A stretch of DNA of 64,000 nt, taken from Candidatus Yanofskybacteria bacterium. Lineage in GTDB: Bacteria; Patescibacteriota; Minisyncoccia; 2-02-FULL-40-12; GWA2-44-9. Shown here one piece after another: positions 4,286 through 60,005 of the stretch. Position 1 is the first letter of the stretch. Each line of letters opens with the position of its first letter. The position numbers and the translations under genes were made by a program. The stretch is taken from assembly GCA_003151795.1 (NCBI GenBank), contig PLYL01000008.1, positions 3,103-67,102 of the forward strand, written 5' to 3'. Below the pieces are notes generated by a model that did no database searches, was not told the origin of the DNA, and saw only the letters and a list, made by a program, of their open reading frames with translations.

Positions 4286-4292
4286 CAACTAA

Positions 4293-4322
4293 AATCCGCC
4301 CGCTTCGGCGGGTTGATTTTAG
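4293..4322 (+). terminator. rho-independent terminator
   Basis: aatccgcc/ggcgggtt stem, loop cgcttc, then gatttt. Confidence 0.65.
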
Positions 4323-4360
4323 TTGACCAAAAGTCATTTTTTTAGTACTATTTTCGAATT

Positions 4361-21306: not shown

Positions 21307-21322
21307 ATTTTATCAAGAACTA

Positions 21323-21362
21323 CCAAATTAAAGCCCCGACTTGCGTCGGGGCTTTAATTTGG
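21323..21362. terminator. long perfect hairpin (ccaaattaaagccccgac/gtcggggctttaatttgg) after rplK
   Basis: 18-bp stem, loop ttgc; U-rich 3' arm. Confidence 0.55.
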
Positions 21363-21413
21363 TAGTATTCTCAAGGTTCGTTTATAACCTAATTTCACCG
21401 AGAGGTCAGCTTT

Positions 21414-23695: not shown

Positions 23696-25198
23696 ATGAA
23701 ATACCAGCCGGTTGTCGGACTCGAAATTCACGCGGCGGTCAAAACCAAGACCAAGATGTTTTGTGATTCGCTGAATGATCCGGATGAGAAACGGCCGAAT
23801 TGGAATGTCTGCCCGATTTGCATGGGCCATCCGGGAACGATTCCAGTTATCAACGAAGAGGCGGTCAAGAAAGTTATTATGACGGGCTTGGCTTTGAATT
23901 GTTCCATTGCGCGCGATACTTTTTTCGAGCGCAAGAACTATTTTTATCCCGATTTGCCGAAGGGCTATCAGATTTCTCAATATCAAAAACCGTTGTGTTT
24001 CGGAGGCTACTTGGAAATTAAATCCGAAGCACGAAATCCTAAATCCGAAATAAATTCGAATATAAAAAATTCAAAAAGAATAAACATTACCCGAATTCAT
24101 CTAGAGGAAGACGCGGGCCGGCTCCAGCATGACCCATCGGGAGATTTCTCTTTGGTGGACTATAATCGGGCGAGTGTCCCGCTCATGGAACTCGTGACCG
24201 AGCCAGATTTTACTAACGGAGATGATGTGCGAGCGTTCGCGGAAGAGTATCAGCTGATTTTGAAATATATCGGCGCGTCGGATGCCGATATGGAAAAAGG
24301 TCTGATGCGGGTCGAGGTCAATATTTCTCTGACTAACGCTGACGGTTCCTACGGCACCAAAGTGGAAATTAAGAATCTCAATTCTATCGCCGCCGCCGCC
24401 GCATCGGTGGATTATGAAATGGCCCGGCAGAAAGAATTGATTGAAAGCGGGGGAGAAGTGGCGGCCGAGACACGCGGGTGGGACGAAAATAAAAAGGCGA
24501 CTTTCAGCCAGCGTTCCAAAGAGGAAGCCCATGACTATCGCTATTTTCCCGAACCGGATTTGCCGCCGTTGAAAATACAGGAATTACGAAGTAGGAATAA
24601 TGAATTAGGAGAAGAAAACCGAGGAGGATTTTATATTGATGAAATCCGAGCCATGTTACCTGAACTGCCACAGGCTAGACGTGAACGATTCAAGAAGCAA
24701 TATGGTTTACCAGATGCAGATGTTGAAATATTCACGACCGATAAGGAACTGGGAAATTACTTTGAGCATGTGGTATCGGAACTCGGCGATAACAGCCTCG
24801 CTAAATTGGCCGCCAACTATCTCATCACCGAAATCAGAAAACACGGCGGAGTGGTCGGAATCAAAATTACGCCCGCCGATTTCGCGGATTTTATTAAGCG
24901 CATCGCGAAGAAGGAAATCTCTTCCTCCGGCGCGCAAACGGTATTGGAAGAAATGTTCAAAACCGGCGCTTCGCCCGAACAAATCATTAAAGAAAAAGAT
25001 TTGGGCCAAGTTTCAGATGCCGGCGCCCTGGATGCGGTAGTAGATAAGGTCCTTGCCGATAATGCCAAAGCGGTAGAAGATTACAAGAAAGGCAAGGAAG
25101 CACCGTTGAAATTCCTAATCGGCATGGCCATGCGCGAAAGCAAGGGGAAGGGGAATCCCCAAGTTTTAGAAGAGATGATTAAACAAAAGCTCTTGTAA
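23696..25198 (+). CDS. gatB: Asp/Glu-tRNA(Asn/Gln) amidotransferase subunit B
   Basis: MKYQPVVGLEIHAAVKTKTKMFC… RIHLEEDAGRL; ATG 23696 (track 23522 is an upstream extension). Confidence 0.9.
   Translation: MKYQPVVGLEIHAAVKTKTKMFCDSLNDPDEKRPNWNVCPICMGHPGTIPVINEEAVKKVIMTGLALNCSIARDTFFERKNYFYPDLPKGYQISQYQKPLCFGGYLEIKSEARNPKSEINSNIKNSKRINITRIHLEEDAGRLQHDPSGDFSLVDYNRASVPLMELVTEPDFTNGDDVRAFAEEYQLILKYIGASDADMEKGLMRVEVNISLTNADGSYGTKVEIKNLNSIAAAAASVDYEMARQKELIESGGEVAAETRGWDENKKATFSQRSKEEAHDYRYFPEPDLPPLKIQELRSRNNELGEENRGGFYIDEIRAMLPELPQARRERFKKQYGLPDADVEIFTTDKELGNYFEHVVSELGDNSLAKLAANYLITEIRKHGGVVGIKITPADFADFIKRIAKKEISSSGAQTVLEEMFKTGASPEQIIKEKDLGQVSDAGALDAVVDKVLADNAKAVEDYKKGKEAPLKFLIGMAMRESKGKGNPQVLEEMIKQKLL
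24026..24085 (+). repeat. in-frame dispersed-repeat copy inside gatB (encodes SEARNPKSEINSNIKNSK)
   Basis: cgaaatcctaaatccgaaat resembles reverse complement of intergenic element at 34483..34546. Confidence 0.4.
24581..24614 (+). repeat. in-frame dispersed-repeat copy inside gatB (encodes ELRSRNNELGEE)
   Basis: gaattacgaagtaggaataatgaattaggagaag matches miaA copy and 55132..55174 arm. Confidence 0.5.
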
Positions 25199-26168
25199 GT
25201 TTCTCGGCGTTTTTCTCGGTTTTTAGCCAGCGGATTTCTTTGTTGCGTTTGAACCAGGTCATCTGGCGTTTGGAGTATTGAATTTCAGAAAGCGTAACTA
25301 ATTTTTTTGTTTCAGTTAAAGAGGTATTTCCCTTCAGGTATTCAAGGATGATTCGATAGCCTAATCCTAAATTATGAAGTCGTTGCCAAGAAATTCCGTT
25401 TGCGCGGAGTTTTTTAACTTCGGCAATCAGACCTTGTTTGAATCGGGCCGAGAGACGAGCGGAGATTCTTTGGTCAAGATTTTTAGGATTTAAACCGAGC
25501 CAAAGGACATCGTAAGGCGATTGTTTTTTAATTTGACCAACAGGCTGGCCGGTCGCGATAACAATCTCAATTGCGCGAATCAGGCGGCGGGGATTATGGC
25601 GGTCGATGTTTTGGGCTCTTTCTGGGTCGAGCTTTTGCAATCGAGCGAATAATTGTTCCGGAGTTTGTTTCTCGAGTTTCGTGCGGAGTTTATAGTTGGG
25701 CGGTACTTCCGGCAGAGAGAAGTTGTAGATAAGCGTATCAATGTATTGTCCCGTTCCGCCGACGATAATTGGTAGTTTGTTTCTTTTTAAAATATTTTTG
25801 ATAGCGCGCTGAGCGAGCTTTTGAAATTGGGCCACGCTAAAAATCCGTTTTGGATTAGCGACATCGATGAGATGATGTCTGATTCCGTTTGAGTAGTACT
25901 CATTCCTAATTCCTAATTCATAATTCCTACTTCTGTCTTTTGAGACTTTACCCGTGCCGATGTCCATTCTACGATATACTTGGCGCGAATCAGCGGAGAT
26001 AATCTCGCCATTGAATTTTCGGGCTAACTGAATCGCCAGGTCAGATTTTCCTGACGCAGTCGGGCCCACGATTACGATTATTTTAGGCTTGCCCAGTATA
26101 TCAACATCGACCCGCCTGCGGTTTTTGGAGACTGTCGAAGTTGTATTACTGGGTTTGATTTTGACCAT
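25179..26168 (-). CDS. miaA: tRNA dimethylallyltransferase
   Basis: P-loop GPTASGKS, …ISADSRQVYRRMDIGTGK. Confidence 0.9.
   Translation of the reverse strand: MVKIKPSNTTSTVSKNRRRVDVDILGKPKIIVIVGPTASGKSDLAIQLARKFNGEIISADSRQVYRRMDIGTGKVSKDRSRNYELGIRNEYYSNGIRHHLIDVANPKRIFSVAQFQKLAQRAIKNILKRNKLPIIVGGTGQYIDTLIYNFSLPEVPPNYKLRTKLEKQTPEQLFARLQKLDPERAQNIDRHNPRRLIRAIEIVIATGQPVGQIKKQSPYDVLWLGLNPKNLDQRISARLSARFKQGLIAEVKKLRANGISWQRLHNLGLGYRIILEYLKGNTSLTETKKLVTLSEIQYSKRQMTWFKRNKEIRWLKTEKNAEKLTRAFV
25902..25934. repeat. in-frame dispersed-repeat copy inside miaA (encodes RSRNYELGIRNEYY on - strand)
   Basis: attcctaattcctaattcataattcctacttctg. Confidence 0.5.
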
Positions 26169-27252: not shown

Positions 27253-28965
27253 GAGGCTGATTTCTTCTTTCAGTTGAGCGACGGCAGTGTCTATGAGCAT
27301 GGTGCCCATGTCGCCTTGACCGTGTTTGCGGACGGCGACGGTTTGCGCGTCGACTTCTTTGTCTCCGATCACGAACAGATAGGGGATTTTTTGGGTCTCG
27401 GCGTTGCGGATTTTTTTGCCGAGGGTTTCGTTTTCGTTATGAAGCTCAACCCGGACGCCGGCATGTTTTAATTTGTGCACGACGGCTTCGGCCCAGGCTT
27501 GTTGCTTTTCGGTTATAGTAATGACGGCGACTTGGACTGGCGAAAGCCAGAGCGGAAACGCACCGGCGTAGTGTTCAATAATAATTCCAAGGAATCTCTC
27601 AAGCGAGCCATACACTACGCGATGGACAACTACTGGCGTTTTTTTATTTCCGTCTCGGTCGGTGTAATAGAGTTCAAAGCGTTTCGGTAACTGGAAGTCA
27701 AGCTGAATAGTGCCCATCTGCCATTCACGGCCAAGACAGTCCTTCATTAAGATATCTATTTTTGGCCCATAAAAGGCGGCGTCGCCTTCTGCCACGATGT
27801 ATTCTTTGCCGGATTTTTTAAGAATCTCCCTAAGTTTTTCTTCAGCTTTATCCCAAGTCGCTTTCTCTCCTAAAAATTTTTCCGGCCTCGTTCCCAGGCG
27901 GAAAGAGTATTCAAGATTGAATATGCCATAAAACTTTTTACAGATTTCAAAAATATGTTCGTATTCATCTCCGATCATTTCTTCGGAGATAAAGTTATGA
28001 GAATCGTCTTGTTGGAATGAGCGGACTCGTAAGAGGCCATTAAGCGTCCCGCTTCGTTCATAGCGATGCAAACGATCGGTATCGGACAGCCGGATCGGAA
28101 GATCTTTGTAGCTCACTTGCATGGATTTGAAGACCACCATCGCATTCGGACAATTCATCGGTTTGATGCCGTAAATTTCGTTTTCTCCCATATCCGCGAT
28201 AAACATATCGTCTTTATAATGTTCCCAATGGCCGGAAATTTTCCAAAGTTCCGCCTTATTCACAAGCGGACTCGCTATTTCTTGATATCCGAGGGCACTA
28301 TGTTCAACTCGCCAGTAATTAACGAGTTCGTTGTAAATGATAAGTCCTTTCGGTAACCAGTAGGGCATGCCGGGTGAAGTTTCATGAAACATAAAAAGGC
28401 CGAGCTGGGGTCCGAGTTTCTTGTGGTCGCGCTTCCTTGCTTCTTCGAGGAGTATTAAATGTTTCTGCAGTTCGTCTTTGGTCGCGAAGGCTAGGCCGTA
28501 AATGCGGGTGAGCTGGGGATTCTTTTCATCACCGCGCCAGTAGGCGCCGGCGAGACGCGAGAGTTTGAAGGCTTTGGGATTGAGGTCTTTGATATTCTCG
28601 ACATGACCGCCTCGGCAGAGGTCGGTGAAATTTCCCGAAGTATAGAGAGTTATTGTTTCACCTTTTTTAACCAGTTCATCAATTAATTCTTCTTTGTAAG
28701 GGTTACTGGCGAATTGTTGCTTGGCTTCATCGGCGGAAACTTCTCGGCCTTCAAAACCTTGCCATGTTTTTAAAATCTCGCGCATCTTGTCTTCAATTTT
28801 CGGGAGGTCGGTGTCCGAAACTTTTTCCGGAATATCGATGTCGTAATAGAAACCATCGTCGATGGCCGGCCCGATGGCTAATTTAGAACCGGGATATAAA
28901 TCCAAAACCGCCGCCCCGAGCAAGTGGGCGAGAGAATGGCGGATATGTTCAATAGGGGAAGCCAT
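27244..28965 (-). CDS. thrS: threonyl-tRNA synthetase (no N-terminal TGS domain)
   Basis: HSLAHLL editing-domain motif, class II core, anticodon-binding domain. Confidence 0.9.
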   Translation of the reverse strand: MASPIEHIRHSLAHLLGAAVLDLYPGSKLAIGPAIDDGFYYDIDIPEKVSDTDLPKIEDKMREILKTWQGFEGREVSADEAKQQFASNPYKEELIDELVKKGETITLYTSGNFTDLCRGGHVENIKDLNPKAFKLSRLAGAYWRGDEKNPQLTRIYGLAFATKDELQKHLILLEEARKRDHKKLGPQLGLFMFHETSPGMPYWLPKGLIIYNELVNYWRVEHSALGYQEIASPLVNKAELWKISGHWEHYKDDMFIADMGENEIYGIKPMNCPNAMVVFKSMQVSYKDLPIRLSDTDRLHRYERSGTLNGLLRVRSFQQDDSHNFISEEMIGDEYEHIFEICKKFYGIFNLEYSFRLGTRPEKFLGEKATWDKAEEKLREILKKSGKEYIVAEGDAAFYGPKIDILMKDCLGREWQMGTIQLDFQLPKRFELYYTDRDGNKKTPVVVHRVVYGSLERFLGIIIEHYAGAFPLWLSPVQVAVITITEKQQAWAEAVVHKLKHAGVRVELHNENETLGKKIRNAETQKIPYLFVIGDKEVDAQTVAVRKHGQGDMGTMLIDTAVAQLKEEISLKK

Positions 28966-28967
28966 TA

Positions 28968-29030
28968 GTAATTAGCGATTAGGACTTAGTCAATAAAGAA
29001 TAACAAATAAATTCAGTAAGTTAAAGAGCT
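28968..29030. repeat. intergenic copy of AGGACTTAG/AAGAAT-type dispersed repeat
   Basis: attaggacttag… shares core with 34483..34546. Confidence 0.35.
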
Positions 29031-29411: not shown

Positions 29412-29492
29412 GGTCAGCCGGGTAGTAGAAGTTGCTGTTGCAGCTTCGCTGCTCGGAAATGCAGCAACTTTCACTACCCGGTCAGCATCGCG
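29412..29492. repeat. long imperfect inverted repeat (~25-bp arms) overlapping dnaE stop codon
   Basis: gtcagccgggtagtagaagttgctg … cagcaactttcactacccggtcagc. Confidence 0.5.
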
Positions 29493-32400
29493 ATTGATTT
29501 CACATCATCACAGAGGAGCTTGAGGGCGCCGTCGCGGTCATTGATTTTGCCGGTGGTGACGACGATAGCATTTTCTTTAAACATTTCGGGATATTTTTCA
29601 TAGACATTCGGGAAGACGACGACTTCGATTTTTGAAGTGAGATCTTCAACCCAGGCGAACATCATCGGCCGGCCGGTTTTGGTAATTATTTTTTGAACTT
29701 TGGTCACAATTCCGCCGATTTTGATTTGGCTCGTGCTGTTTGGTTTCACGTCTTTGATGGCGACAGTCTTTTCTAATTTCATGGTTGGTGCGTATTCGTG
29801 GAGGGGATGGGCGGAAACAAAGAGGCCGAGCAGTTCTTTTTCCCACATTAATTTTTCGGAGTTGCGGGCGGGCGTGGTGGCATTGAGCCGAAAGGCCGGC
29901 AGAGCAATAGGGTCGTTGCCAAACAAACTGGCTTGGCCCATGCTAGTGCTTTTTTGTTTGTCGTGGGCGAAGGAAAGAAGGTTTTCCAGATTAAGCAATA
30001 ACATGTTCCGTTCGCCGAAAGAATCCAGCGCTCCGCATTTGATGAGGGCCTCGAGCGATTTTTTGTTGAGGTCTTTATTGTGCACTCGCGATACAAAATT
30101 TTCGATGTCGGTATAGGGGCCATTGGCTGTTCGTTCGGCGATAATCGCCTCGGCGATATTTTCGCCGAGATTTTTAATGGTCAAAAGCCCAAATCGGATT
30201 TGATCCCTTTGTTCCTTGTTCATTGTTCCCTGTTCACTGGCTTTAATGACCGTAAAATCTTTAAAAGAGGTGTTAATTTCCGGCGGTAAAACCGGAATTT
30301 TCATGCGCTGGCATTCTTCAATCACTTGAGCGACTCTCTCCGTGTCGCCCGATTCGGCCGTGAGAATGGCGCACATATATTCCGCGGAATAGTTAGCCTT
30401 CATGTACGCGGTCTGGTAGGCGACTCGGCCGTAGCAGGCGGCGTGGGCTTTATTGAAGCCATAGCCCTGGAACGGTTCGAATAAATTCCAGATTCCTTCG
30501 GCTTGTTCGGTCGTCATACCGCTATGGGTTTTACAACCTTCAACGAAAATAACATGCTGTTTGGCCATCTCGGCCGGAATTTTTTTGCCCACCGCTTTTC
30601 TAAATTTGTCGACGGATTCCCAATTGTAGCCGGCCAATTCCATGGCCGTGAACAGCAGGTCATCCTGATAGACCAAGACGCCGTAGGATTTTTCCAGCCA
30701 TTGTTTAGCTTTAGGGTGAAAATAAATAGTCGGACTCCGGCCTTGTTTGCGGGCGATGTACTCCGAGATGTTATTAATCGGACCGGGCCGATACAGCGCG
30801 ACCATGAGATTAATATCATGAATAGTGGTGGGTTTGAGTTCCATGAGATACTTAGTCATACCCGAGGAACCGCCCAGCTGGAAAACTCCTTCGGTATAGC
30901 CGTTGGCGAGCATGGTGAAGGTTTTTTTGTCGTCGAAAGGAATTTTTTCAATATCAATAGTGATGCCTTGGTGTTCTTTAACCAAGCGGACGGCGTTTTC
31001 TAAGATGGCCAAGTTGCGGATGCCCAAGACGTCGAGCTTAAGGAGGCCGACGCCGTCTTCGCCGACCGTGTACATGTCGTATTGCGTGATAAGGTTGTTG
31101 CCTTCTTTAGGATCGAACTGAATCGGCACGTATTCGATGAGCGGTCTGGGCGAAATAACGAGACCGGCGGCGTGGACCGAGACATGGCGGACCGTGCCTT
31201 CAAGCTTTTTGGCGATGTCCATAATCTGCCGAGTTTCCAAATCCCGTTCGTAGAGATTTTTTAATTCCGGTTCAAGTTCCAGCGCTCGTTCGATGGTCAT
31301 GGGGAATCCTTGAGAACCCATGGGGATGAGTTTGGCGAGCCGGTCGCCGACTTCGTAGGACTTGCCGGTGGCGCGAGCGACGTCCCGTACCGAACCGCGG
31401 GCGAGCATGGTGCCGAAGGTGCCGATTTGAGCGACTTTATCGGCGCCGTATTTCTTTTTGGCGTACTCCACGATTTCTTGACGGCGGTTATCGGCAAAAT
31501 CCATATCAATATCCGGCGCCGACGGGCGAAAAGGATTCAAAAATCTTTCAAACGGCAGCTGGAATTCAATAGGATTGACGCTAGTGATGCCGGAAAGATA
31601 GGCGACCAGGGAACCGGCGGCGGAACCGCGGACCGTGGTATAGATATTTGATTCGTGGGCAAAGCGAAGCAGGTCGGCGACGACCAAAAAATAGGGCGCG
31701 TAATTTTTGTTTTTGATAATCTCCAGTTCGTATTGGCGGCGGGTTTCGATTTCGGGGTTATTTTCTAATTCGCGTTCGACGGCCCCTTTTTTGGTCAGCT
31801 CGTCCAACATCTGATCGGATGTTTTGCCTGGTTCGAGTTCAAAATTAGGGAAGATGAATTTACCGAGGGTCAGTTCGATGTTGCAGCGGTCGGCGATTTT
31901 TTGCGTGTTCGCGACGGCTTCGGGAGTTTCCTTGAATCGTTCGACCGCTTCTTCGGTGGAAAGAAAATGATACTCGCCTTGGCCGGAAAATATCGCCGGA
32001 TCGCTGACGTCGGTGTGTGTGGAGATGGCGACCAAAGTTTTATGGGCGACCGCATCGTCTTTGCGGAGGTAGTGGGAGTCTTGCGTCGCGACGAGGGGAA
32101 TATTGTGTTTGCGGGCTAGCTCGAGAATCGCACTTTTCCATTCCGGGAACCATTCCATATCAGGATGGTGCATGATTTCCATATAATAGTTTTCGGGACC
32201 GAAGATGGCCTGGTATTCCAGAACAATTGCTTCCGCTTTTTCTTTGTCGCCGTGCTGAATGGCTCGGCCTAACTCACTGCCGGGACAGCCCGAAAGACAA
32301 ATCAAGCCTTCAGCGTGCTGGCGGAGCAAGTCTTTATCGACACGCGGTTTGTAATAGAAGCCCTCGAGGTGGGCCGAGGTGGTGAGCCTGATTAAGTTTT

Positions 32401-32695
32401 GGTAGCCCGTCAAATCTTTCGCCAGCAAAGTGAGATGATAGCGCTTATTGTCGATTTGAGGTTCCTTTTGCAGTCGGCTCCGGTTGGCGACGTAGGCCTC
32501 AACGCCGATGATGGGTTTGATGCCGTTCTTCTTGCAGGCGGTATAAAAATCAATCGCGCCGTACATCACGCCGTGGTCCGTCAGCGCGATAGCGGTCTGG
32601 CCGTGTTCCTTCGCCAGCTTCACCATTTGATCTATCTGCGACATCCCATCCAATAATGAATAATGGCTATGTGTATGTAAATGAACAAATTTCAT
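29474..32695 (-). CDS. dnaE: DNA polymerase III alpha subunit
   Basis: PHP domain MKFVHLHTHSHYSLLDG; polymerase core motifs. Confidence 0.95.
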   Translation of the reverse strand: MKFVHLHTHSHYSLLDGMSQIDQMVKLAKEHGQTAIALTDHGVMYGAIDFYTACKKNGIKPIIGVEAYVANRSRLQKEPQIDNKRYHLTLLAKDLTGYQNLIRLTTSAHLEGFYYKPRVDKDLLRQHAEGLICLSGCPGSELGRAIQHGDKEKAEAIVLEYQAIFGPENYYMEIMHHPDMEWFPEWKSAILELARKHNIPLVATQDSHYLRKDDAVAHKTLVAISTHTDVSDPAIFSGQGEYHFLSTEEAVERFKETPEAVANTQKIADRCNIELTLGKFIFPNFELEPGKTSDQMLDELTKKGAVERELENNPEIETRRQYELEIIKNKNYAPYFLVVADLLRFAHESNIYTTVRGSAAGSLVAYLSGITSVNPIEFQLPFERFLNPFRPSAPDIDMDFADNRRQEIVEYAKKKYGADKVAQIGTFGTMLARGSVRDVARATGKSYEVGDRLAKLIPMGSQGFPMTIERALELEPELKNLYERDLETRQIMDIAKKLEGTVRHVSVHAAGLVISPRPLIEYVPIQFDPKEGNNLITQYDMYTVGEDGVGLLKLDVLGIRNLAILENAVRLVKEHQGITIDIEKIPFDDKKTFTMLANGYTEGVFQLGGSSGMTKYLMELKPTTIHDINLMVALYRPGPINNISEYIARKQGRSPTIYFHPKAKQWLEKSYGVLVYQDDLLFTAMELAGYNWESVDKFRKAVGKKIPAEMAKQHVIFVEGCKTHSGMTTEQAEGIWNLFEPFQGYGFNKAHAACYGRVAYQTAYMKANYSAEYMCAILTAESGDTERVAQVIEECQRMKIPVLPPEINTSFKDFTVIKASEQGTMNKEQRDQIRFGLLTIKNLGENIAEAIIAERTANGPYTDIENFVSRVHNKDLNKKSLEALIKCGALDSFGERNMLLLNLENLLSFAHDKQKSTSMGQASLFGNDPIALPAFRLNATTPARNSEKLMWEKELLGLFVSAHPLHEYAPTMKLEKTVAIKDVKPNSTSQIKIGGIVTKVQKIITKTGRPMMFAWVEDLTSKIEVVVFPNVYEKYPEMFKENAIVVTTGKINDRDGALKLLCDDVKSIAMLTG

Positions 32696-34098: not shown

Positions 34099-34257
34099 GC
34101 TACTCCATCTATAAATTCTGTAAATACATAGATGGGTGATTTAATTTGCAAAAGAAATCTTTTTGTGGTATCATCTTCAAGTAGTTAATATTAGTTGTTG
34201 GCGATTGGATTTTAGAGATTTATCTAAGTTCTAATGGCTAATTACTGAATTCTATCC

Positions 34258-34482
34258 GTGGCAGTACCGAGACACCATATGGCCAAAGGGAAGCAGCTGC
34301 GCCGACGCAGTCATTTGGCGTTGAAGAGCGGCACCTTAACGAAATGCGCTCATTGCGCTAAAATGATTATGCCGCATCAGGTTTGCAAATTCTGCGGTTT
34401 CTACAAAGGCCGAGAAGTTGTAAATGTTCTCGGTAAGGAATTAAAGAAGCAGGAAAAGCGCACCGCACAGCGTACAAGATAG
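34258..34482 (+). CDS. rpmF: 50S ribosomal protein L32
   Basis: MAVP…RRRSH…C..C…C..C zinc-ribbon pattern. Confidence 0.75.
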   Translation: MAVPRHHMAKGKQLRRRSHLALKSGTLTKCAHCAKMIMPHQVCKFCGFYKGREVVNVLGKELKKQEKRTAQRTR

Positions 34483-34546
34483 AATTTAGGACTCAGGATT
34501 TAGGACTTAGATTTGACTAAGTTCTAACTTCTAAGTTCTAACTCCT
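34483..34546. repeat. intergenic inverted-repeat element (TAGGACT/TAGAACT units)
   Basis: left taggactcaggatttaggacttag vs right ctaagttctaacttctaagttctaa. Confidence 0.55.
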
Positions 34547-34552
34547 TTATAA

Positions 34553-35074
34553 GTGGCATCACGTCATCTCTCTCGCAGCGTCGCAATGCAGTCCCTCTAC
34601 GAATGGGATTTTAAGGGCAGTAAAAAAGAAGACCTCGCCGACATTGTCGGGCGCAATATCGAAGAATTCGCTTCCGGTGTTGACGACCCGACGTTTATCG
34701 TCCAGATTGTCCAGGGCGTCGTTAAAAATCTCGACAAGATAAATGCGATTATCGAAAAAGCGGCCCCGCAGTGGCCCTTGGCCCAGATTGCCATTGTTGA
34801 TCGCAATGTCTTACGGATTGGTTTGTACGAATTGCTTTTCGGTAGCCGAGATGAAGTGCCGCCCAAAGTGGCCATCAACGAAGCCATCGAATTGGCCAAA
34901 TCATTCGGCGGAGATTCGTCCGGCAAATTCGTAAATGGTGTATTGGGTACCGTCTATCGTGAAATCGGCGAACCGGGCAAAAACGACGTCGCAAAATCAC
35001 GCGACCCCGAAGACAGCGAGCCAATCGAGGGCGTGCCAGTTGATGATGAGCCAGTGGAAGCACAGGAGAAATAA
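34553..35074 (+). CDS. nusB: transcription antitermination factor NusB (with acidic C-terminal extension)
   Basis: NusB-fold sequence pattern. Confidence 0.8.
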
Positions 35075-35084
35075 TAATTTAATA

Positions 35085-35151
35085 GAATTAAGAGTTAAGA
35101 ATTACGAATTAAGATTTTCAATCTTACTTCTTAATTCTTACTTCGTACTTC
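35085..35151. repeat. intergenic inverted-repeat element (AAGAATTA units)
   Basis: gaattaagagttaagaattacgaattaaga … tcttacttcttaattcttacttcgtacttc. Confidence 0.6.
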
Positions 35152-35160
35152 TTTGTGAAT

Positions 35161-40474: not shown

Positions 40475-40858
40475 ATGTCGTGGGTATATATCGAGAGAGA
40501 GCAATTTGTCCGTATGTGTGACAAACTGGATATATCAGCCACCGTCAGAGAATCTATAAAATCATGGGCACCCACTGTATCTAGATATGAGATACCACGC
40601 CAAAAACTAGTTTATCGGTCTCCTAAAAATAAATATGAAGCTTGGGCTGCTGGGCTTCCTAACCCAGATAGTAATAAAGGTAAAAGTGGTGGCTACAGGG
40701 TTGTTTATTATCTAGATCTTATTGAAAAAACGATAAACTTGGATTTTATTGAGGATAGAAAGAATCTAGGTTTTAAAGATGAAGGTCATCGTAAAAAAGA
40801 CGGCTATAATGATTATATTCGTGGTCTCAAAGAATTTTTAAAAGAGAATGATTGTTAA
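40475..40858 (+). CDS. HigB/RelE-like (Gp49-type) putative toxin
   Basis: KGKSGGYRVVYYLD… motif characteristic of HigB-2/RelE-family toxins. Confidence 0.55.
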   Translation: MSWVYIEREQFVRMCDKLDISATVRESIKSWAPTVSRYEIPRQKLVYRSPKNKYEAWAAGLPNPDSNKGKSGGYRVVYYLDLIEKTINLDFIEDRKNLGFKDEGHRKKDGYNDYIRGLKEFLKENDC

Positions 40859-40860
40859 TT

Positions 40861-40890
40861 AAAACCACCGATAGAATATCGGTGGTTTTA
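40861..40890. terminator. bidirectional rho-independent terminator
   Basis: aaaaccaccgatagaatatcggtggtttt. Confidence 0.8.
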
Positions 40891-40894
40891 ATTT

Positions 40895-44399: not shown

Positions 44400-46745
44400 C
44401 TAGGATTCTTTAGATGAAGTGTCAATGACAGCGATTTCCCCACTAGTAGAATCTTCAATGGCCTTCGGCTTTTTGGGAGTTGAAAATTCACTACCCGGCT
44501 TAGGCTTTCCATATTTTTTAGCAGGTTTAACTGGTTTTGATTTCCATATTACCAATGCTTCCTGCAGTTCGGCTTCGCTTTCGGGTTTCTTGCCCATCAG
44601 GAAGGTACAATCGGGCCAGCGGGAACAGGCATAAAAGAGTTTACCACGGCCGCGGGATTTTTTCTCCACAACATCGCCAGTCAGACAGTTCGGGCATTTG
44701 AATCCGGTCTTGTTGAAGATTTTGGAAATACCCTTACATTTAGGATAATCGACACAACCGAGGAAATAGCCGAAGCGCCCGCGGATTACTTTCATGGGTT
44801 TGCCGCAGATAGGGCACATTTCGCCTTTGGTTTTTTCTTCCAGTTCTTTTATTTTGGCGGCTTCTTCGGGCATAGGAAGCGAAACTTTGCTCCCAGGTTC
44901 GGGACAGGCGAGGAATTTACCGTTGCGTCCGAATTTAACGAGCATCATTTTACCGCAGTGCGGGCAAGGCGTAGTCGATTCGACGATTAGTTTTTCGACG
45001 AGTTCCGTTTTTTCTTTTAAGTTCTTGGCGAAAGGCGCGTAGAATTCTTCCACCACCGGCACCCATTTAATTTTGCCTTCGGCAATATCATCAAACTCTT
45101 CTTCAATGTGCGAGGTGAAATTTATGTCGATGACTTCTGGGAAGTTCTCAACGAGCATGTCGTTGACCGAAAAGCCAATTTCGGTGGGTTTATATTTCTT
45201 GTCTTCTTTTTCGACGTAGCCGCGGTCCTGAATCGTGGTGAGGGTCGGCGCATAGGTCGAAGGACGGCCGACGCCCGCGGCTTCAAGGGTTTTAATGAGC
45301 GAGGCGTCGGTGTATCTGGGCGGCGGTTCGGTGAAGTGCTGGTCTTTGGCGAGCTTAATCAGATTTAATAATTCTTTTTGGGACAATTCCGGAAGTTGGC
45401 CGTCTTCGTATGAGTCTTCTTCAGTCTTTTCGTCGTCTTCTTTGGTTTCGGTATAGGCGCGGATGAAGCCGTCAAATTTAACCGCTTGGCCGTTGGCGCG
45501 GAAGGTGTATTTTCTTGATTCTTGATTCTTGCTTCGTGCTTCTATATCCGCGGCGGTTTGGTCGAGAATGGCAACCTGCATCTGGCAGGCGATGGTCCGT
45601 TTCCAGATCAAGTCATAGAGGCGGAGCTGGCCGGAATCCAAATCTTTGTCGAGACTGTCGGGCAAGCGGGATAAATCGGTGGGCCGGACGGCTTCGTGAG
45701 CTTCCTGGGCGCCTTTGGATTTGTTGAGGAATGAGCGGGGCGCGTCGAGGCAATATTCCTTGCCAAATTGTTTCTTGATGACTTCTTGGGCTTGAGCCAG
45801 GGCAATTTCCGAGATATGCAAACTGTCGGTGCGCATGTAGGTAATCATGCCGGTTTCGTATAATCTCTGGGCCAAGGTCATGGTCTGTTTGGCGGAGAAG
45901 CCGAGTTTCTTGGCTGCTTCTTGCTGGAGAGTGGAAGTCGTAAATGGCGCGGGCGGGGTCCGTTTGACTTCTTTTTTCACGACGTCGATGACTTTATATT
46001 CGGCGCCGACTAATTCGTCGGTAATTTTTTTAGCGTCGGCTGGATTTTTAATGCCCAATCGGTCGATTGATTCTTCGCCCCCGCCTGGCCGGCCGGCAGG
46101 GATTTTGACGAGCCGAGCTTTGAAAGTCTTGTCCTCGTCTTTTTTAGAAAGGTCGGCTTCGACGGACCAGTATTCTTGGGGCGTGAATTTTAGGATTTCG
46201 CGTTCGCGCTCCACGACGAGGCGGACGGCGACGCTTTGGACGCGGCCCGCGGAAAGGCCGGAGCGGATTTTTTTCCACAGGAAGGGCGAGAGTTTGTAAC
46301 CGACGAGGCGGTCGATGATGCGCCGGGCCTGTTGGGCGTCGACGAGATTCTGGTCGAGCTGGCGGGGATGAGCGATGGCTTTTTCAATCGCGGGTTTGGT
46401 AATTTCATGGAAGACGACGCGTTCGGTCTTGCCGGCCGTGGTTTTCTTATCCAGGCCGAGGGCGTGGGCGAGATGCCAGGCGATGGCTTCGCCTTCGCGG
46501 TCCGGGTCGGTGGCGAGAATCACCATGTCGGCTTTGGCCGCCGCGGTTTTGAGTTCGCTGACAATCTTCTTGGCTTTTGTCGGAATAATATATTCAGGTT
46601 TGAAATCGTGGGCGATATCGATGCCGATGCCTTTCTTGGGTAAGTCGCGGATATGGCCGAAAGAGGATTTAACGACAAAATCGCCGCCGAGGAAGCGGGA
46701 GATGGTTTTAGCTTTGGTTGGGGATTCGACGATTATTAACTGCAT
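44400..46745 (-). CDS. topA: DNA topoisomerase I
   Basis: Toprim N-terminus, catalytic core, three C-terminal zinc ribbons, Lys-rich tail. Confidence 0.95.
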   Translation of the reverse strand: MQLIIVESPTKAKTISRFLGGDFVVKSSFGHIRDLPKKGIGIDIAHDFKPEYIIPTKAKKIVSELKTAAAKADMVILATDPDREGEAIAWHLAHALGLDKKTTAGKTERVVFHEITKPAIEKAIAHPRQLDQNLVDAQQARRIIDRLVGYKLSPFLWKKIRSGLSAGRVQSVAVRLVVEREREILKFTPQEYWSVEADLSKKDEDKTFKARLVKIPAGRPGGGEESIDRLGIKNPADAKKITDELVGAEYKVIDVVKKEVKRTPPAPFTTSTLQQEAAKKLGFSAKQTMTLAQRLYETGMITYMRTDSLHISEIALAQAQEVIKKQFGKEYCLDAPRSFLNKSKGAQEAHEAVRPTDLSRLPDSLDKDLDSGQLRLYDLIWKRTIACQMQVAILDQTAADIEARSKNQESRKYTFRANGQAVKFDGFIRAYTETKEDDEKTEEDSYEDGQLPELSQKELLNLIKLAKDQHFTEPPPRYTDASLIKTLEAAGVGRPSTYAPTLTTIQDRGYVEKEDKKYKPTEIGFSVNDMLVENFPEVIDINFTSHIEEEFDDIAEGKIKWVPVVEEFYAPFAKNLKEKTELVEKLIVESTTPCPHCGKMMLVKFGRNGKFLACPEPGSKVSLPMPEEAAKIKELEEKTKGEMCPICGKPMKVIRGRFGYFLGCVDYPKCKGISKIFNKTGFKCPNCLTGDVVEKKSRGRGKLFYACSRWPDCTFLMGKKPESEAELQEALVIWKSKPVKPAKKYGKPKPGSEFSTPKKPKAIEDSTSGEIAVIDTSSKES
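45514..45542. repeat. in-frame dispersed-repeat copy inside topA (encodes EARSKNQESRK on - strand)
   Basis: cttgattcttgattcttgcttcgtgcttc. Confidence 0.45.
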
Positions 46746-46760
46746 GTAACTGATTTAACC

Positions 46761-46865
46761 TTGAGAACTAACCCTTTCGCCCCAGACCCATGAAACCAGT
46801 CCCGTCGGTTTCCCCACTGCTGTGGGACCCCTTCCACTACTGGGGCTTAAAGGGTCAGTTCTCAA
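46761..46865. repeat. 105-bp element with ~25-bp near-perfect terminal inverted repeats between dprA and topA
   Basis: ttgagaactaaccctttcgccccag … ctggggcttaaagggtcagttctcaa; inner hairpin cccactgctgtggg; followed by ttttt. Confidence 0.55.
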
Positions 46866-46868
46866 TTT

Positions 46869-47732
46869 TTATTCTGACTTGCGAAAAATTCCGCCGGCCA
46901 TTTGTTTGATATGGCCCTGGATTTCCATGAGCGCGAGTGCGCCCATAACTTCTGACGCGCCAAACTTACTCTCTTCTATGATAGCGTCGATGTTTAAAGG
47001 GCCGTGTTCTTCGAGCACCGCAAGAATAGTAGCATGGGTTGGGTCGATTGTGGAGAGACGCGAAGATTTTGCGAGGGGAAGTTTGGAATAATCATCCAGG
47101 ACATCATGCGCAGAGGCGACTAGTTTTGCGCCGGTCCGAATGAGTTTATGCGGGCCCATCGATTTCGATGAAAAAATATTTCCCGGCACTGCGAAGACAT
47201 CGCGATTCTGTTCTCCGGCCAGCCGAGCTGTAATTAAAGAACCGCTCTTTTCATCGGCTTCGATAATGAGAACACCTTTTGATAAACCACTGATGATACG
47301 GTTTCGTTCGGGGAAGGACTGCTTGCCCGCTGGCTTCTTGCCAGGATGCTCGGAAATTATTAAGCCATTATTTTTCAAAATATCCAGCCCGAGCCGACGG
47401 TTTGTTTCCGGCGTTATAGTATCAATGCCTGAACCAAGGATGGCGATGGTCTTGCCGCCGCAATCAAGCGTGGCGCGATGGGCGACAGCATCAATACCCA
47501 AGGCTAGACCGCTCACAATCGTGAAATGGCGGGCGAGGCCAGGGACAATTTGCTGGGCGGCTTCTCGGCCATAGGGCGTCATCGAGCGCGTGCCGACGAC
47601 GGCGAAGCATTCCGTTTTGAATAACGCGATATTTCCACGGCAATATAAAACTTCCGGCGGATCCGAAATGTGTTTCAGGAGTTTCGGATAAGCCTTTGAT
47701 GTTCGCTCGACTTTGATGACGGGATAATCCAT
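46869..47732 (-). CDS. dprA: DNA processing protein DprA/Smf
   Basis: VGTRSMTPYGREAAQQIV…GLALGIDAVAH pattern. Confidence 0.85.
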   Translation of the reverse strand: MDYPVIKVERTSKAYPKLLKHISDPPEVLYCRGNIALFKTECFAVVGTRSMTPYGREAAQQIVPGLARHFTIVSGLALGIDAVAHRATLDCGGKTIAILGSGIDTITPETNRRLGLDILKNNGLIISEHPGKKPAGKQSFPERNRIISGLSKGVLIIEADEKSGSLITARLAGEQNRDVFAVPGNIFSSKSMGPHKLIRTGAKLVASAHDVLDDYSKLPLAKSSRLSTIDPTHATILAVLEEHGPLNIDAIIEESKFGASEVMGALALMEIQGHIKQMAGGIFRKSE

Positions 47733-53075: not shown

Positions 53076-53603
53076 GCGTCAGTACGCAGGCAATTGGTCG
53101 CCATAGGCGACAGGAAAGTCCGGGCACTATCCCGCACATAGCAAGCACTAGTTGCTTTCGCAATACGTATAGCGTGTTTGCGAAGAAAACGAGAATAAGA
53201 CGAGATACGTTGTTAATTAAACAATGTGTCGCAACAGTATTGCCAGTGCTTGCTATGTGCGGGAAACGGTAATGGGTAACTCCCATACACGGCAACGTGA
53301 GAGGTGCGAGCAGAGACGGCTTGTCTCGAAAGAGACGGCAAGCTAAACCCAGACCATTGATTTATCAAAGGTCACAGCTTAGCTCTCATCGGGGATACAA
53401 GATGAGAGGTGAAACGGCTAAATCCTTACTGGAGTGCAAGATCAAAGTCCCGCCCGCTTTTACCTAAAAGTGGGGCGGGATTACAAGTAGATCGCTTGAG
53501 CTCGCGAGCAATCGCGAGCCTAGATAAATAATTGTCGAGGCCCGCCACACTCATTCATGAGTGATGAGGGCTAGTACAGAACCCGGCTTATTACGTACTG
53601 ACC
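53076..53603 (+). ncRNA. rnpB: RNase P RNA (bacterial type, with AT-rich expansion)
   Basis: GGAAAGTCCGGGC (P4 5'), …GGGAAACGGTAA…, CCTAGATAAATAATTGTC, ACAGAACCCGGCTTA (P4 3'); P1 pairing of gtcagtacg with cgtactgac. Confidence 0.85.
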
Positions 53604-53638
53604 AAAATCGTCCGCCTCGGCGGGCGATTTTGTTTTAT
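53604..53638 (+). terminator. rho-independent terminator of rnpB
   Basis: atcgtccgcc/ggcgggcgat (one G·U) + tttgtttt. Confidence 0.8.
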
Positions 53639-55059: not shown

Positions 55060-55063
55060 CCTA

Positions 55064-55174
55064 GAAGCAAGAATATAGAGTTAAGAATTAAGCGGGATTG
55101 AATGCTGAGCTATAAATTGGTAGCTTTGTTTCGTGCTTGATCTTAATTCTTGATTCGTAATTCCTACTTCTTCC
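55064..55174. repeat. intergenic inverted-repeat element of AAGAATTA family (arms 55064-55096 and 55132-55174)
   Basis: gaagcaagaatatagagttaagaattaagcggg … cgtgcttgatcttaattcttgattcgtaattcctacttcttcc. Confidence 0.6.
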
Positions 55175-57428: not shown

Positions 57429-60005
57429 ATGCCAGGCAGTGAAAATGGCGGGCAAGCGATGTTTGACGTGAAGCCGGTGGATGAATCCGGCGCTCTTGAT
57501 GTTCAAAAAATCGACGCCGTTCAGCCGATAATCAACCTCGCCTCATTCAGGCCCAAGAAGCGCGCCGTGGCGCAGAAGCAAGAAGCAAGAATTAAGAATC
57601 AAGAGGAAAAAATTACCTCGCTAGTTACGCCGTCCGAAGAAATGTTGCCGCCGGTGATTGGTTTGCCGTCTCGCCAGGATATCAAAGAGCAGTTCGAGGA
57701 ACTCATGAATCATGACCTCGATCTGGGTATCGAGCTGGCGCAAATAAATATTATTAACCCACCCAAATTTTCCGGAGAAAAACTTAGGCGGGCAAGGCCT
57801 CGCTATCAAATTATTCAAAGCCGTTCGTCGAGAGTCCCCGCGCCTGAAGATGACCTATACGCGCCGCTCATCGCCGCTATCCATCAATCGGCCAAAACCA
57901 TTTCTCATGAAGAATATATCAGTCCGGAAATTCTCGCCGAGCTCGATGCAACCCTGATACCCAACGAGCTTTCTCAATCGGCCGAGACGGATGTGCGATC
58001 GCTCTTTGCTGGACCATCGATTCAGCTCATCGCTAAAAAGAAATCTTTTCCGAAGGCGTCTCGTATTCGCAAATGGCCTAAATTTAAAATTCCTCGAGCC
58101 TATGTTTTTATCGCTATTGCTGCGGCCATTGCGCTGGCGCTTATCATTCTTTATGGCTTTCACGTGAAGCGCCAGATTGTGCAACAGAGCTCGGCCGCCG
58201 TGGCCAATCTCCAGACCGCTCAAGGCGATTTAAAAGCGCTTGATTTTAAAAACGCTTCCCAAGATTTCTTTTCGGCCTACGCTGATTTTTCTCAAGCCGG
58301 CAATAGTTTGAATGTCTTCGGCGCGGGCATTACCGACATTCTTTCAGCTCTGCCGGGCGGGAGTACGCTCAAGTCCGCCAAGAATTTGGTCCAAGTCGGC
58401 CAGTTGCTTTCGGCCGCTGGCACATCAATGACGACGGCGCTTGATGCGGTTGCCAAGACCGGCGCAATTAGCGACCCCACTAATCCCCAGGTGCCAATCG
58501 GGCCGATTGTCAGCGCTTTGAAGAAGGCGCTTTTAGCTTCTCAACAGCAAGTGGCCCAAGCGAGCACGCTCATGGCTGATATTGATAGCAGTATCATTCC
58601 TATCGACAAGCAGGCCGGCTTTGATGATTTGAAAGCCAAACTGCCAGAGTTGGAAGCGGGCGTGAATATGAGCGCCGACTATGCCAAGTTTTTTGAAAAT
58701 TTAATCAATAACGGTAACGCCAAATATCTTGTGATGTTCCAGAACGGTTCCGAACTTCGGCCCACGGGCGGGTTTCCGGGGACGTATGGCGTGGTCTCGT
58801 TTACTGATGGCAAGATGGACAGCCTGTTTGTTGATGATGTCTATAATCTCGACGGCCAGCTCAAAGAAAACATTATCCCTCCGCTTCAGCTTCAGCACAT
58901 TACGCCCAATTGGGGGATGCGCGATTCCAATTGGTATGTCGATTTTCCAACGTCGGCCCGTAACATTCAAGCCTTTTATAAAAAAGAATCTGGCCAAAGC
59001 GTGGATGGCGTAATCATCATCAATCCCGAAATGATTGCGAAGATTCTCGATATTGTCGGGCCGATTGATATGCCCCAATACCACCTCACCCTCACGGCTG
59101 ATAATGTCCTCACGACCATCCAAAGCCAAGTCGAGTATGGCACGAATCGGGTCCAGCCTAAACAAATCGTCAAAGATTTCGCGCCGTTACTGCTGGCAAA
59201 AATATACTCCGCTGGTTCAGATAAATGGCTTCAAATTTTCAACACGCTTATCTTAAGCATGAATCAGCGCGATGTCTTGATGTCTTTTAATAACTTATCT
59301 CTCGAAAGCTTCGTGACTGACAAAGGCTTCGGGGGCCAAGTCCAGGAGGCGAAAGGCCAGGACTATCTGATGCCCGTCATCACTAACATCAAAGGTTCTA
59401 AAACCGACGCTGTCACGGATACGTCATTCGCAATCGATACGACATTTGACGGTACAACCGCTGTCCACACGCTCACCATTACCCGCCAACATAACGGCGG
59501 CGGGGAGAAGTTTGGATTCTATAATAAACAAAATCCGGCCTATGTCCGCGTCCTCGTGCCTGATGGTGCAGAACTGGTTTCCGTGACTGGCAATGACCAG
59601 CCGAACTTCGCTCCGATTATCAACTACGCGAAAGATAAGAGTTTTGTTCGTGATGACGAATTGAATGTTTTCGAGACAAGCGGGACGACCGACAATGCGA
59701 CTGACGTCGTAACCTATCGCGAATCCGGCAAAACCGAATTCGGCTTCTGGCTCATCACCGATCCCGGAAAATCAAAGACCGTCACGGTCACTTATCGCGT
59801 CCCGAATGCCTTGACTGATAAGGCCTACCAACTCTACATCCAGAAACAGCCCGCTCTCGTGGTAAAGAATTTCTCATTCTCGATGCAAAAACCTGACGGT
59901 CTCATGCCCGACGCTTCGGCTCCGGTCCTGACTACTGATGGTTCGTCATACGACTACTCGGCACCGCTCACCGAAGACCTTGCCGTCAAGGTTAATTTCA
60001 AGTAA
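57429..60005 (+). CDS. DUF4012-family membrane-anchored extracytoplasmic protein
   Basis: single N-terminal TM (AYVFIAIAAAIALALIILYGF); YLVMFQNGSELRPTGGFPGTYGVV DUF4012-like core. Confidence 0.6.
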   Translation: MPGSENGGQAMFDVKPVDESGALDVQKIDAVQPIINLASFRPKKRAVAQKQEARIKNQEEKITSLVTPSEEMLPPVIGLPSRQDIKEQFEELMNHDLDLGIELAQINIINPPKFSGEKLRRARPRYQIIQSRSSRVPAPEDDLYAPLIAAIHQSAKTISHEEYISPEILAELDATLIPNELSQSAETDVRSLFAGPSIQLIAKKKSFPKASRIRKWPKFKIPRAYVFIAIAAAIALALIILYGFHVKRQIVQQSSAAVANLQTAQGDLKALDFKNASQDFFSAYADFSQAGNSLNVFGAGITDILSALPGGSTLKSAKNLVQVGQLLSAAGTSMTTALDAVAKTGAISDPTNPQVPIGPIVSALKKALLASQQQVAQASTLMADIDSSIIPIDKQAGFDDLKAKLPELEAGVNMSADYAKFFENLINNGNAKYLVMFQNGSELRPTGGFPGTYGVVSFTDGKMDSLFVDDVYNLDGQLKENIIPPLQLQHITPNWGMRDSNWYVDFPTSARNIQAFYKKESGQSVDGVIIINPEMIAKILDIVGPIDMPQYHLTLTADNVLTTIQSQVEYGTNRVQPKQIVKDFAPLLLAKIYSAGSDKWLQIFNTLILSMNQRDVLMSFNNLSLESFVTDKGFGGQVQEAKGQDYLMPVITNIKGSKTDAVTDTSFAIDTTFDGTTAVHTLTITRQHNGGGEKFGFYNKQNPAYVRVLVPDGAELVSVTGNDQPNFAPIINYAKDKSFVRDDELNVFETSGTTDNATDVVTYRESGKTEFGFWLITDPGKSKTVTVTYRVPNALTDKAYQLYIQKQPALVVKNFSFSMQKPDGLMPDASAPVLTTDGSSYDYSAPLTEDLAVKVNFK
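57575..57606 (+). repeat. in-frame dispersed-repeat copy (encodes QEARIKNQEE)
   Basis: gaagcaagaagcaagaattaagaatcaagagg. Confidence 0.45.

Follow-up and report, generated by a model that had tools for sequence, protein, structure and literature searches.

Heptanucleotide-array palindromes around nusB in a Parcubacteria genome and their recurrence upstream of rnc

Palindromes of heptanucleotide arrays in the spacers flanking nusB

The 64,000-nt stretch of contig PLYL01000008.1 analyzed here (the window; GC content 47.7%) originates from a member of the Candidate Phyla Radiation (CPR; Patescibacteria, Parcubacteria, near Candidatus Yanofskybacteria) and carries the co-directional genes rpmF, nusB and rnc, after which a plsY-like gene comes next. 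The rnc product is canonical, with an ERLEFLGD signature and a double-stranded RNA-binding domain (dsRBD). The rpmF|nusB spacer (34483-34552, 30% GC) and the nusB|rnc spacer (35075-35154, 21% GC) are each filled by an imperfect palindrome of short tandem units. The genes and the parts of the two palindromes are, in window positions:

34258-34482, + strand: rpmF (ribosomal protein L32; Pfam Ribosomal_L32p, E 7.6e-17)
34486-34510, + strand: left arm of the rpmF|nusB hairpin, TTAGGAC/TCAGGAT/TTAGGAC/TTAG, pairing with 34517-34541 (Tandem Repeats Finder, TRF, period 7)
34511-34516, + strand: loop ATTTGA (fold)
34517-34541, + strand: right arm of the rpmF|nusB hairpin, CTAAGTT/CTAACTT/CTAAGTT/CTAA (TRF period 7, 88% matches; fold)
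34553-35074, + strand: nusB (Pfam NusB, E 1.3e-35)
35084-35116, + strand: left arm of the nusB|rnc hairpin, AGAATTA/AGAGTTA/AGAATTA/CGAATTA/AGATT (inverted-repeat search; TRF period 7; profile, 21.1 bits)
35117-35119, + strand: loop TTC (fold)
35120-35152, + strand: right arm of the nusB|rnc hairpin, reverse complement AGAAGTA/CGAAGTA/AGAATTA/AGAAGTA/AGATT (inverted-repeat search; TRF; profile; fold)
35155/35161-35850, + strand: rnc (RNase III with dsRBD; Pfam Ribonucleas_3_3, E 1.5e-42; dsrm, E 5e-17)

The rpmF|nusB hairpin (34486-34541) consists of the arms TTAGGACTCAGGATTTAGGACTTAG and CTAAGTTCTAACTTCTAAGTTCTAA, 25 nt each, around a 6-nt loop, and its stem has 23 predicted base pairs (6 GC, 14 AU and 3 GU). 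Its minimum free energy (MFE) is -24.1 or -24.2 kcal/mol, according to which flanks are included in the fold (z = -3.4; one of 200 shuffled sequences was as stable), and its right arm stops 11 nt short of the nusB GTG. In the nusB|rnc hairpin (35084-35152), arms of 33 nt with 82% complementarity enclose a 3-nt loop and form 28 predicted base pairs, with an MFE of -18.6 or -19.0 kcal/mol, again depending on the flanks, and z = -3.4. This palindrome is the longest inverted repeat of the window and lies in the rnc 5' leader, ending 2-8 nt ahead of the rnc start. The mismatches in its stem coincide with positions 1 and 5 of the unit, which are variable, so that the arms look like independent samples of unit variants and not like maintained exact complements. 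An earlier reading made from the sequence alone (the sequence-only reading) had described both spacers as filled by imperfect palindromes that would fold into long RNA hairpins between co-directional genes, and the predicted structures agree with this. It had also given the unit size as 7-9 nt; TRF, however, assigns a period of exactly 7 to all four arms flanking nusB, with 3.6-4.6 units per arm (3.6-5.1 over all arms tested).

Dispersed copies in the window

In a scan of the window (at least 17 of 21 matches; periods 4-15 compared), eight arrays of period 7 and five of period 14 were recorded, and none of any other period. The window alone contains 12 sites in 64 kb, five intergenic and seven within open reading frames (ORFs), and three convergent array pairs form palindromes. 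The sequence-only reading would have been refuted by a lack of further copies, and these sites show that such copies exist. The intergenic copies outside the two nusB spacers are:

55063-55094 and 55140-55171, + strand: arms of a third palindrome with the same units (fold, inverted-repeat search, profile)
28960-28992, - strand: single arm CTAAGTC/CTAATCG/CTAATTA/CTAATG in the thrS leader, running into the start codon and without a partner arm (repeat search, TRF)
34221-34247, + strand: CTAAGTT/CTAATGG/CTAATTA/CTGAAT, single arm of the rpmF leader with ~80% identity to the arm in the thrS leader

Two further family members had been proposed in the sequence-only reading. The first, at 55064-55174, is indeed a true palindrome of the same units (55063-55171). 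Its arms enclose a GC-richer inner hairpin, its right arm abuts the ATG at 55177, and no shuffled sequence was as stable as its fold (-39.8 kcal/mol). For the second, at 28968-29030, kinship holds for the four-unit heptamer arm but not for a hairpin, as this thrS-leader region folds no better than shuffled sequences (z = +0.39).

Eight copies, taken in the purine-rich sense, align over ~31 nt with the consensus AGAAGTA-AGAAnTA-AGAATTA-AGAATTA-AGA, and all eight have an equal number of units (4 to 4.5) in identical order. Four of them are the arms of the nusB|rnc and 55063-55171 palindromes; the remaining four are within ORFs and in the coding strand. With a profile of these copies (nhmmer), a ninth was retrieved at 24581-24610 with 13.1 bits, compared with a maximum of 7.6 bits in 20 shuffled windows. 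The rpmF|nusB spacer and the leader arms of thrS and rpmF constitute a TTAGRAC/CTAAGTT sub-type. Copies are ~75-85% alike, and only via the shared unit theme, and single arms are direct heptamer arrays that are not palindromic by themselves. The elements are convergent pairs of ~4-unit heptanucleotide arrays from a loose dispersed family with the consensus ~AGAAGYA-NGAAKYA-AGAATYA-AGAATYA-AGA plus the TTAGRAC/CTAAGTT sub-type. This family takes three forms: palindromes that fill spacers, lone arms in 5' leaders, and lone arms inserted in frame in housekeeping genes, at variable surface loops of the proteins.

In-frame copies within genes

The seven arrays located in ORFs are:

24020-24066, + strand: first array in GatB, a 12-aa insertion compared with solved GatB structures (TRF, structure comparison)
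24581-24610, + strand: second array in GatB, ELRSRNNELGEENRG, 15 extra residues compared with solved structures (nhmmer, 13.1 bits)
25900-25934, - strand: array in MiaA, the 13-aa insertion RSRNYELGIRNEY (TRF, structure comparison, relatives)
30206-30240, - strand: GAACAAG-type array in the 1073-aa ORF 29474-32695, in a loop of variable length (TRF, period scan)
45513-45543, - strand: array in TopA (EARSKNQES), 6-7 extra residues exactly at the array (TRF, solved structures, close relatives)
57574-57604, + strand: array in a DUF4012 protein, close to the N-terminus (QKQEARIKNQE) (TRF, profile)
63728-63757, + strand: array encoding YEARSKNHE in the ORF starting at 62857 (period scan, profile)

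These genes were compared with relatives from a collection of 160 Parcubacteria loci (numbered with the prefix L) taken from genomes and metagenomes and divided into two sets of 1.28 Mb and 0.88 Mb. The array-bearing loops are length-variable hot spots among close relatives. The TopA insert has an orthologous copy in L082 that is identical in 30 of 31 nt; L087 and L002 lack it, and L081 has another insert in its place. Only the window has the second GatB insert, which is missing from all close relatives. In other lineages the MiaA loop contains different heptamer arrays; L004, for example, encodes SSKVKSEKLKVLR with AAAGTTA units. The sharing of inserts across relatives indicates that copies within ORFs persist across species, while the intergenic palindromes get replaced. 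The inserts have the peptide motifs EARSKN and RSRN.ELG in common because one DNA element is read in one frame. Lineage-specific insertions that keep the reading frame of essential enzymes go back to these 7-nt arrays, which may also be part of the reason why loop insertions vary in the conserved proteins of these Parcubacteria.

Heptamer arrays in related Parcubacteria

The synteny of rpmF, nusB and rnc is kept in the 160 loci. The closest public relative shows 91% identity in RNase III, and a same-species relative is absent from both locus collections. Period-7 arrays dominate in both sets: the first has 94 of them and no more than 18 for any period outside the multiples of 7, the second 119 and no more than 13. 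Based on 80 loci and the window, with crude gene calls, 108 of 156 arrays (~69%) are located in non-coding sequence, which makes up ~11% of the DNA. The orthologous spacers very often hold tandem-heptamer palindromes, mostly with other unit sequences such as GAAAACT in L001, GGAATCA/CATGATT in L081 and AGTATTA in L098, and at least 29 convergent array pairs were counted in the relatives. Both the rpmF|nusB and the nusB|rnc spacers are identical in L001 and L082, two loci obtained from the Hainich groundwater wells. GAATYA-type units upstream of rnc are common to L081, L011, L102, L105, L109 and L119, which suggests a long persistence of the locus at this position.

Two other features were observed in these spacers. 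In L089 and L098, the rpmF|nusB spacer contains an insert of ~470 nt that is flanked by CTAATnn arrays and may contain a small ORF. The rnc leaders of L003, L004 and L089 share a GC-rich, non-heptamer element (...ctctcggctac...attgattg..ctctcgct...) that may be a distinct conserved RNA.

Spread of a mobile family of the REP/REPIN, RPE or MITE type by a dedicated transposase (REP, repetitive extragenic palindromic sequence; REPIN, REP doublet forming a hairpin; RPE, Rickettsia palindromic element; MITE, miniature inverted-repeat transposable element) would account for the common unit order and ~31-nt length of the eight copies and the weaker ninth, and for in-frame insertions with shared peptide motifs in several housekeeping genes. 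However, no consensus extends past the heptamer theme, and the arms are direct arrays, unlike the palindromic units of REPs or a core enclosed by terminal inverted repeats. The likeness of the copies within ORFs is also explicable by a coding filter, i.e. the lack of stops and the hydrophilic residues in all three frames. In addition, unit sequences are just slightly closer within genomes than between them (2.35 vs 2.57 mismatches; permutation p < 0.0005), which led to the rejection of a single tight family per genome. A mobile family in this sense is very hard to reconcile with these data and is the least credible of the explanations considered.

Most likely, the arrays grow and shrink by replication slippage in steps of 7 nt. 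An array beside a hairpin would be copied in inverted form by intramolecular template switching, which would give rise to convergent pairs, and the separate homogenization of each arm would put mismatches where the units vary (positions 1 and 5). A GC-richer hairpin is enclosed by the heptamer arms in 55063-55171, L010 and L013, which points to pre-existing stems as nucleation sites of the arrays.

A hot spot upstream of rnc

The arrays are concentrated at the nusB|rnc junction. In the first set, 18 of 71 nusB|rnc junctions carry an array compared with 44 of 1081 other junctions (odds ratio 8, p = 4e-9, Fisher), and in the second set the corresponding counts are 25 of 67 and 33 of 712 (odds ratio 12, p = 5e-14, Fisher). 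At the neighbouring junctions, rpmF|nusB and rnc|next gene, arrays occur in 4-16%. A stem excess at the same position was also found when stems were counted independently of heptamers: at least 20 nested base pairs are present in 78% of the nusB|rnc spacers of 40-220 nt, but in 39% of other co-directional spacers (Mann-Whitney p ~9e-5).

In a polycistronic RNA of rpmF, nusB and rnc, the arms would form AU-rich stems of 23-28 bp, which would be long enough for RNase III. The nusB|rnc stem in the rnc 5' leader could then be a site of RNase III processing or autoregulation, as in the E. coli rnc leader, and the rpmF|nusB stem could provide a second intercistronic processing or stability site. We tentatively favor this interpretation of the AU-rich stems as RNase III substrates, with the stem in the rnc leader as a putative processing or autoregulatory site; it is plausible, if somewhat short of probable, and the putative regulation may be of either sign. 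The reproducible hot spot in the rnc leader makes the hypothesis of RNase III substrates and an autoregulation site a testable one.

The arrays could instead be a tolerated by-product, i.e. non-functional heptanucleotide microsatellites and palindromes that result from a lineage-specific mutational bias and are retained where they cause little damage, in spacers and in surface loops of proteins, with the hot spot at rnc as inherited history. This would fit arrays that run from stop codon to start codon, as if the spacer had arisen by array expansion, as well as single arms in ORF loops that exist without pairing, the fast change of unit sequences, the many relatives that have no spacer and the lack of a sense-strand bias at nusB|rnc. 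Earlier work, as cited in PMC4692102, ascribed the excess of heptamers among bacterial simple sequence repeats to polymerase slippage. However, the enrichment is 8-12-fold at one junction in two locus sets while the adjoining junctions are near background, and long stems that are not made of heptamers are likewise enriched at nusB|rnc. Moreover, other deep intergenic hairpins show a modest bias to the sense strand (78 vs 46, p = 0.005). A by-product without function is considered somewhat less likely than RNase III substrates, but it is a strong rival to them.

Several points weigh against a role of the stems as RNase III sites. The loci are phylogenetically related and the Fisher p-values consequently overstate independence, the gene calls behind the junction counts were crude, and a repeat locus, once seeded, can persist without selection. 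The nusB|rnc spacer is too short for a hairpin in ~40% of the loci, and the stem is therefore dispensable. Either the purine-rich or the pyrimidine-rich arm may come first, depending on the genome, so that a conserved arm orientation, which is true in the window, fails across relatives. The sense RNA folds better than the antisense RNA for all three palindromes of the window, but among the nusB|rnc hairpins of relatives the sense strand is more stable in 16 and the antisense strand in 13; G:U pairs hence give no sign that selection has acted on the sense RNA. With this even split, and with mixed results for the 29 heptamer hairpins, G:U pairs were rejected as proof of a role at the RNA level. 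Finally, single arms inside ORFs form no stem, which shows that the family exists independently of a hairpin function.

A wider scenario, which we regard as distinctly unlikely, would combine spread and function. Modules of ~30 nt made of heptamers would spread in Parcubacteria in a copy-and-paste manner; inverted pairs would supply double-stranded RNA where RNase III cleaves polycistronic transcripts, yielding short-leader mRNAs in genomes with few Shine-Dalgarno sites and feedback on rnc via its leader, and single arms would repeatedly add loops to the essential proteins TopA, GatB and MiaA.

Signals for transcription and translation

A promoter-like site is located upstream of rpmF at 34145-34174. 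No sigma-70-like promoter was found on the sense (+) strand in either spacer, and the lone overlap with a spacer is a weak antisense match at 35098-35071; a promoter within the arrays was rejected on this basis. Rfam covariance models gave no match at E <= 1 in 34483-35154 or 55063-55171. Likewise, neither spacer nor 55063-55171 gave a terminator-like hit for the sense strand, i.e. a GC-rich stem followed by a U tract, and the hairpins do not have the form of intrinsic terminators.

The last result bears on a role of the stems as attenuators, terminators or REP-like 3' stabilizers, which would reduce read-through from the highly expressed rpmF to nusB and rnc or protect the mRNA upstream of them against 3' exonucleases. 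The sequence-only reading had likened the elements to repeats that modulate operon polarity, and the stems may or may not have such an effect. The stable stems are located between co-directional genes of differing expected expression, and in 55063-55171 and L013 arrays extend a terminator-like inner hairpin. However, the stems lack the combination of a GC-rich stem and a U tract, and the canonical terminators at 479-525 and 21319-21366, which have the U tail and GC-rich top that are missing from the heptamer stems, look different. Furthermore, attenuation would be most consequential between rpmF and nusB, but this junction shows no significant enrichment in the first set of loci. Attenuation or 3' stabilization is therefore improbable.

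As a separate observation, canonical-looking terminators occur at 479-525, 4286-4325, 21319-21366 and 40857-40893; they have long stems with a GC-rich top and A/U-rich flanks and are unlike the heptamer hairpins.

The arrays might also function as single-stranded RNA or DNA in leaders, where the pyrimidine-type array (CTAAnnn, TCTTAnn) would bind a protein or the ribosome and the opposite arm would mask it. Arrays abut the starts of nusB, rnc, thrS, rpmF and the gene at 55177, with the pyrimidine-type strand always in the sense orientation. Shine-Dalgarno motifs precede only nine of the 70 called genes of the window, and the TAACTGA repeats of Beggiatoaceae provide a precedent (PMC4679880). 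Across relatives, however, purine-rich and pyrimidine-rich arms are found next to the start with about equal frequency, and the units vary. The general rarity of Shine-Dalgarno motifs moreover makes their absence ahead of nusB and rnc uninformative, and this absence was set aside as a clue. A single-stranded leader element is accordingly given very little credence, and the stems remain best, if tentatively, interpreted as RNase III substrates.

TATAAT-like hexamers are found 5-10 nt before many starts in the window (e.g. upstream of 577, 13271, 16532 and 57429). Together with the rarity of Shine-Dalgarno motifs, this suggests frequent leaderless or very short-leader mRNAs.

Other features of the window

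Four further observations were made. NusB has an acidic C-terminal tail that extends ~30 residues past the Pfam domain (residues 137-173; 34983-35074) and differs in length among relatives. Between the ORF 46869-47732 and topA, a structured leader (46746-46868, - strand) consists of a 17-bp outer stem around a GC-rich core (MFE -61.6 kcal/mol, z -6.7); it has no Rfam match and is possibly a new cis-regulatory RNA upstream of topA. An RNase P RNA of bacterial class A at 53078-53606 scores 88.9 bits, under the gathering score of 100, is 529 nt long compared with a 367-nt model and carries an inserted perfect 20-bp inverted repeat (53130-53149 / 53245-53264). A 39-nt tandem repeat at 1613-1754 (3.6 copies, 95% identity) in the 809-aa ORF 577-3006 corresponds to a 13-residue protein repeat.

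Comparison with known systems

The sequence-only reading had likened the elements to REP sequences and bacterial interspersed mosaic elements (BIMEs) or to RPEs. REPs are individually palindromic units of 20-40 nt that exist in many almost identical copies, are strictly extragenic and are linked to the REP-associated tyrosine transposase (RAYT), a Y1 transposase of the IS200/IS605 type (cf. PMC3116915). The elements described here resemble REPs as short dispersed repeats that form hairpins between co-directional genes. Nevertheless, kinship with REP, REPIN or BIME was rejected, as the arms are direct heptamer arrays that are not palindromic by themselves, lack a long conserved consensus and also occur as seven in-frame copies within ORFs. 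RPEs are 100-150 bp long, have a conserved consensus and are palindromic also inside ORFs. What stands of the proposed relation to RPEs is the in-frame insertion in conserved housekeeping genes (TopA, +6-7 aa; GatB, +12 and +15 aa; MiaA, +13 aa); membership in the RPE family does not hold, since the elements are 56-109 nt long, their consensus comprises heptamers only, and the copies in ORFs are single arms of ~31 nt. MITEs have terminal inverted repeats around a core and target-site duplications on either side; the two elements flanking nusB have no core and loops of 6 and 3 nt. CRISPR and tandem interspaced guide RNA (TIGR) arrays, in which repeats of at least 20 nt alternate with unique spacers beside cas or tas genes, were rejected because the 7-nt units are contiguous, without spacers, and the neighbours are rpmF, nusB and rnc. 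Iterons and CsrA sites were ruled out on anatomy. The elements are dispersed heptanucleotide-array palindromes and not copies of REP/BIME or RPE elements. In annotation, the spacers should be labelled neither as mobile elements nor as terminators or small RNAs.

For a possible function, the closest comparison is the stem-loop in the E. coli rnc leader (rncO), which is reportedly the site of RNase III autoregulation (work attributed to Bardwell et al. in 1989 and Matsunaga et al. in 1996). In both cases a long double-stranded stem, here a predicted one, is located in the rnc 5' leader of an operon transcript, and the 28 bp predicted for 35084-35152 exceed the ~20 bp taken as the minimum for an rncO-like stem. 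However, there is no homology to rncO in sequence or structure, and the stem is a heptamer-array palindrome.

With regard to their architecture, the elements correspond to the dispersed heptanucleotide repeats of other bacteria: a 7-nt unit is present in at least three copies at many loci, enriched in intergenic regions, and forms convergent stem-loop pairs. For decades such repeats have been familiar from cyanobacteria, Xanthomonas and Beggiatoaceae, with no function generally agreed on, and here they are dense in very small Parcubacteria genomes. The short tandemly repeated repetitive (STRR) heptamers of cyanobacteria are said to have been described by Mazel et al. in 1990, and families of very short (21-27 nt) Nostoc repeats, some of them hairpin-forming and associated with heptamer arrays, reportedly by Elhai et al. 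in 2008. The repeats described here differ from them in phylum and in units, and paired palindromes are rare in Nostoc. To our knowledge, no enrichment upstream of rnc has been reported for the cyanobacterial heptamers. The cyanobacterial and Nostoc repeats are dispersed tandem units near starts or promoters, with several families per genome and a suspected role in regulation (Pradhan et al., bioRxiv 10.1101/2022.06.06.494920). In Beggiatoaceae, two to six copies of TAACTGA are located directly upstream of starts that lack a Shine-Dalgarno motif (MacGregor 2015, PMC4679880). The Parcubacteria elements share with them arrays that abut starts, some of which lie inside ORFs and in ribosomal protein operons, but TAACTGA arrays are nearly always direct and in one orientation (one of 170 inverted), and one unit sequence is used across phyla (PMC4679880).

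The greatest likeness is to the GGGAATC heptamers of Xanthomonas, which include, in each genome, 70-75 pairs in convergent (inverted) arrangement (Rehm et al. 2015, PMC4692102). In both groups the arrays of 7-nt units are short, mainly intergenic, present at many loci and often arranged as convergent stem-loop pairs, and a locus is kept between relatives while its length and sequence vary; the Xanthomonas repeat, too, is without known function (PMC4692102). The Xanthomonas units are G-rich, capable of forming G-quadruplexes and dominated by one unit per genome (PMC4692102), whereas those of Parcubacteria are AT-rich and heterogeneous, have no G-quadruplex potential, fill whole spacers in a genome of the ~1-Mb class and concentrate upstream of rnc. 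In the literature, no report of heptamer arrays in CPR bacteria was found. Thus, the closest kinds are the inverted GGGAATC pairs of Xanthomonas, followed by the cyanobacterial STRR and Nostoc heptamers and TAACTGA of Beggiatoaceae; what is new is their occurrence in this lineage, with units that are AT-rich and heterogeneous, palindromes that fill spacers, a hot spot in front of rnc and insertions that recur in frame in essential proteins.

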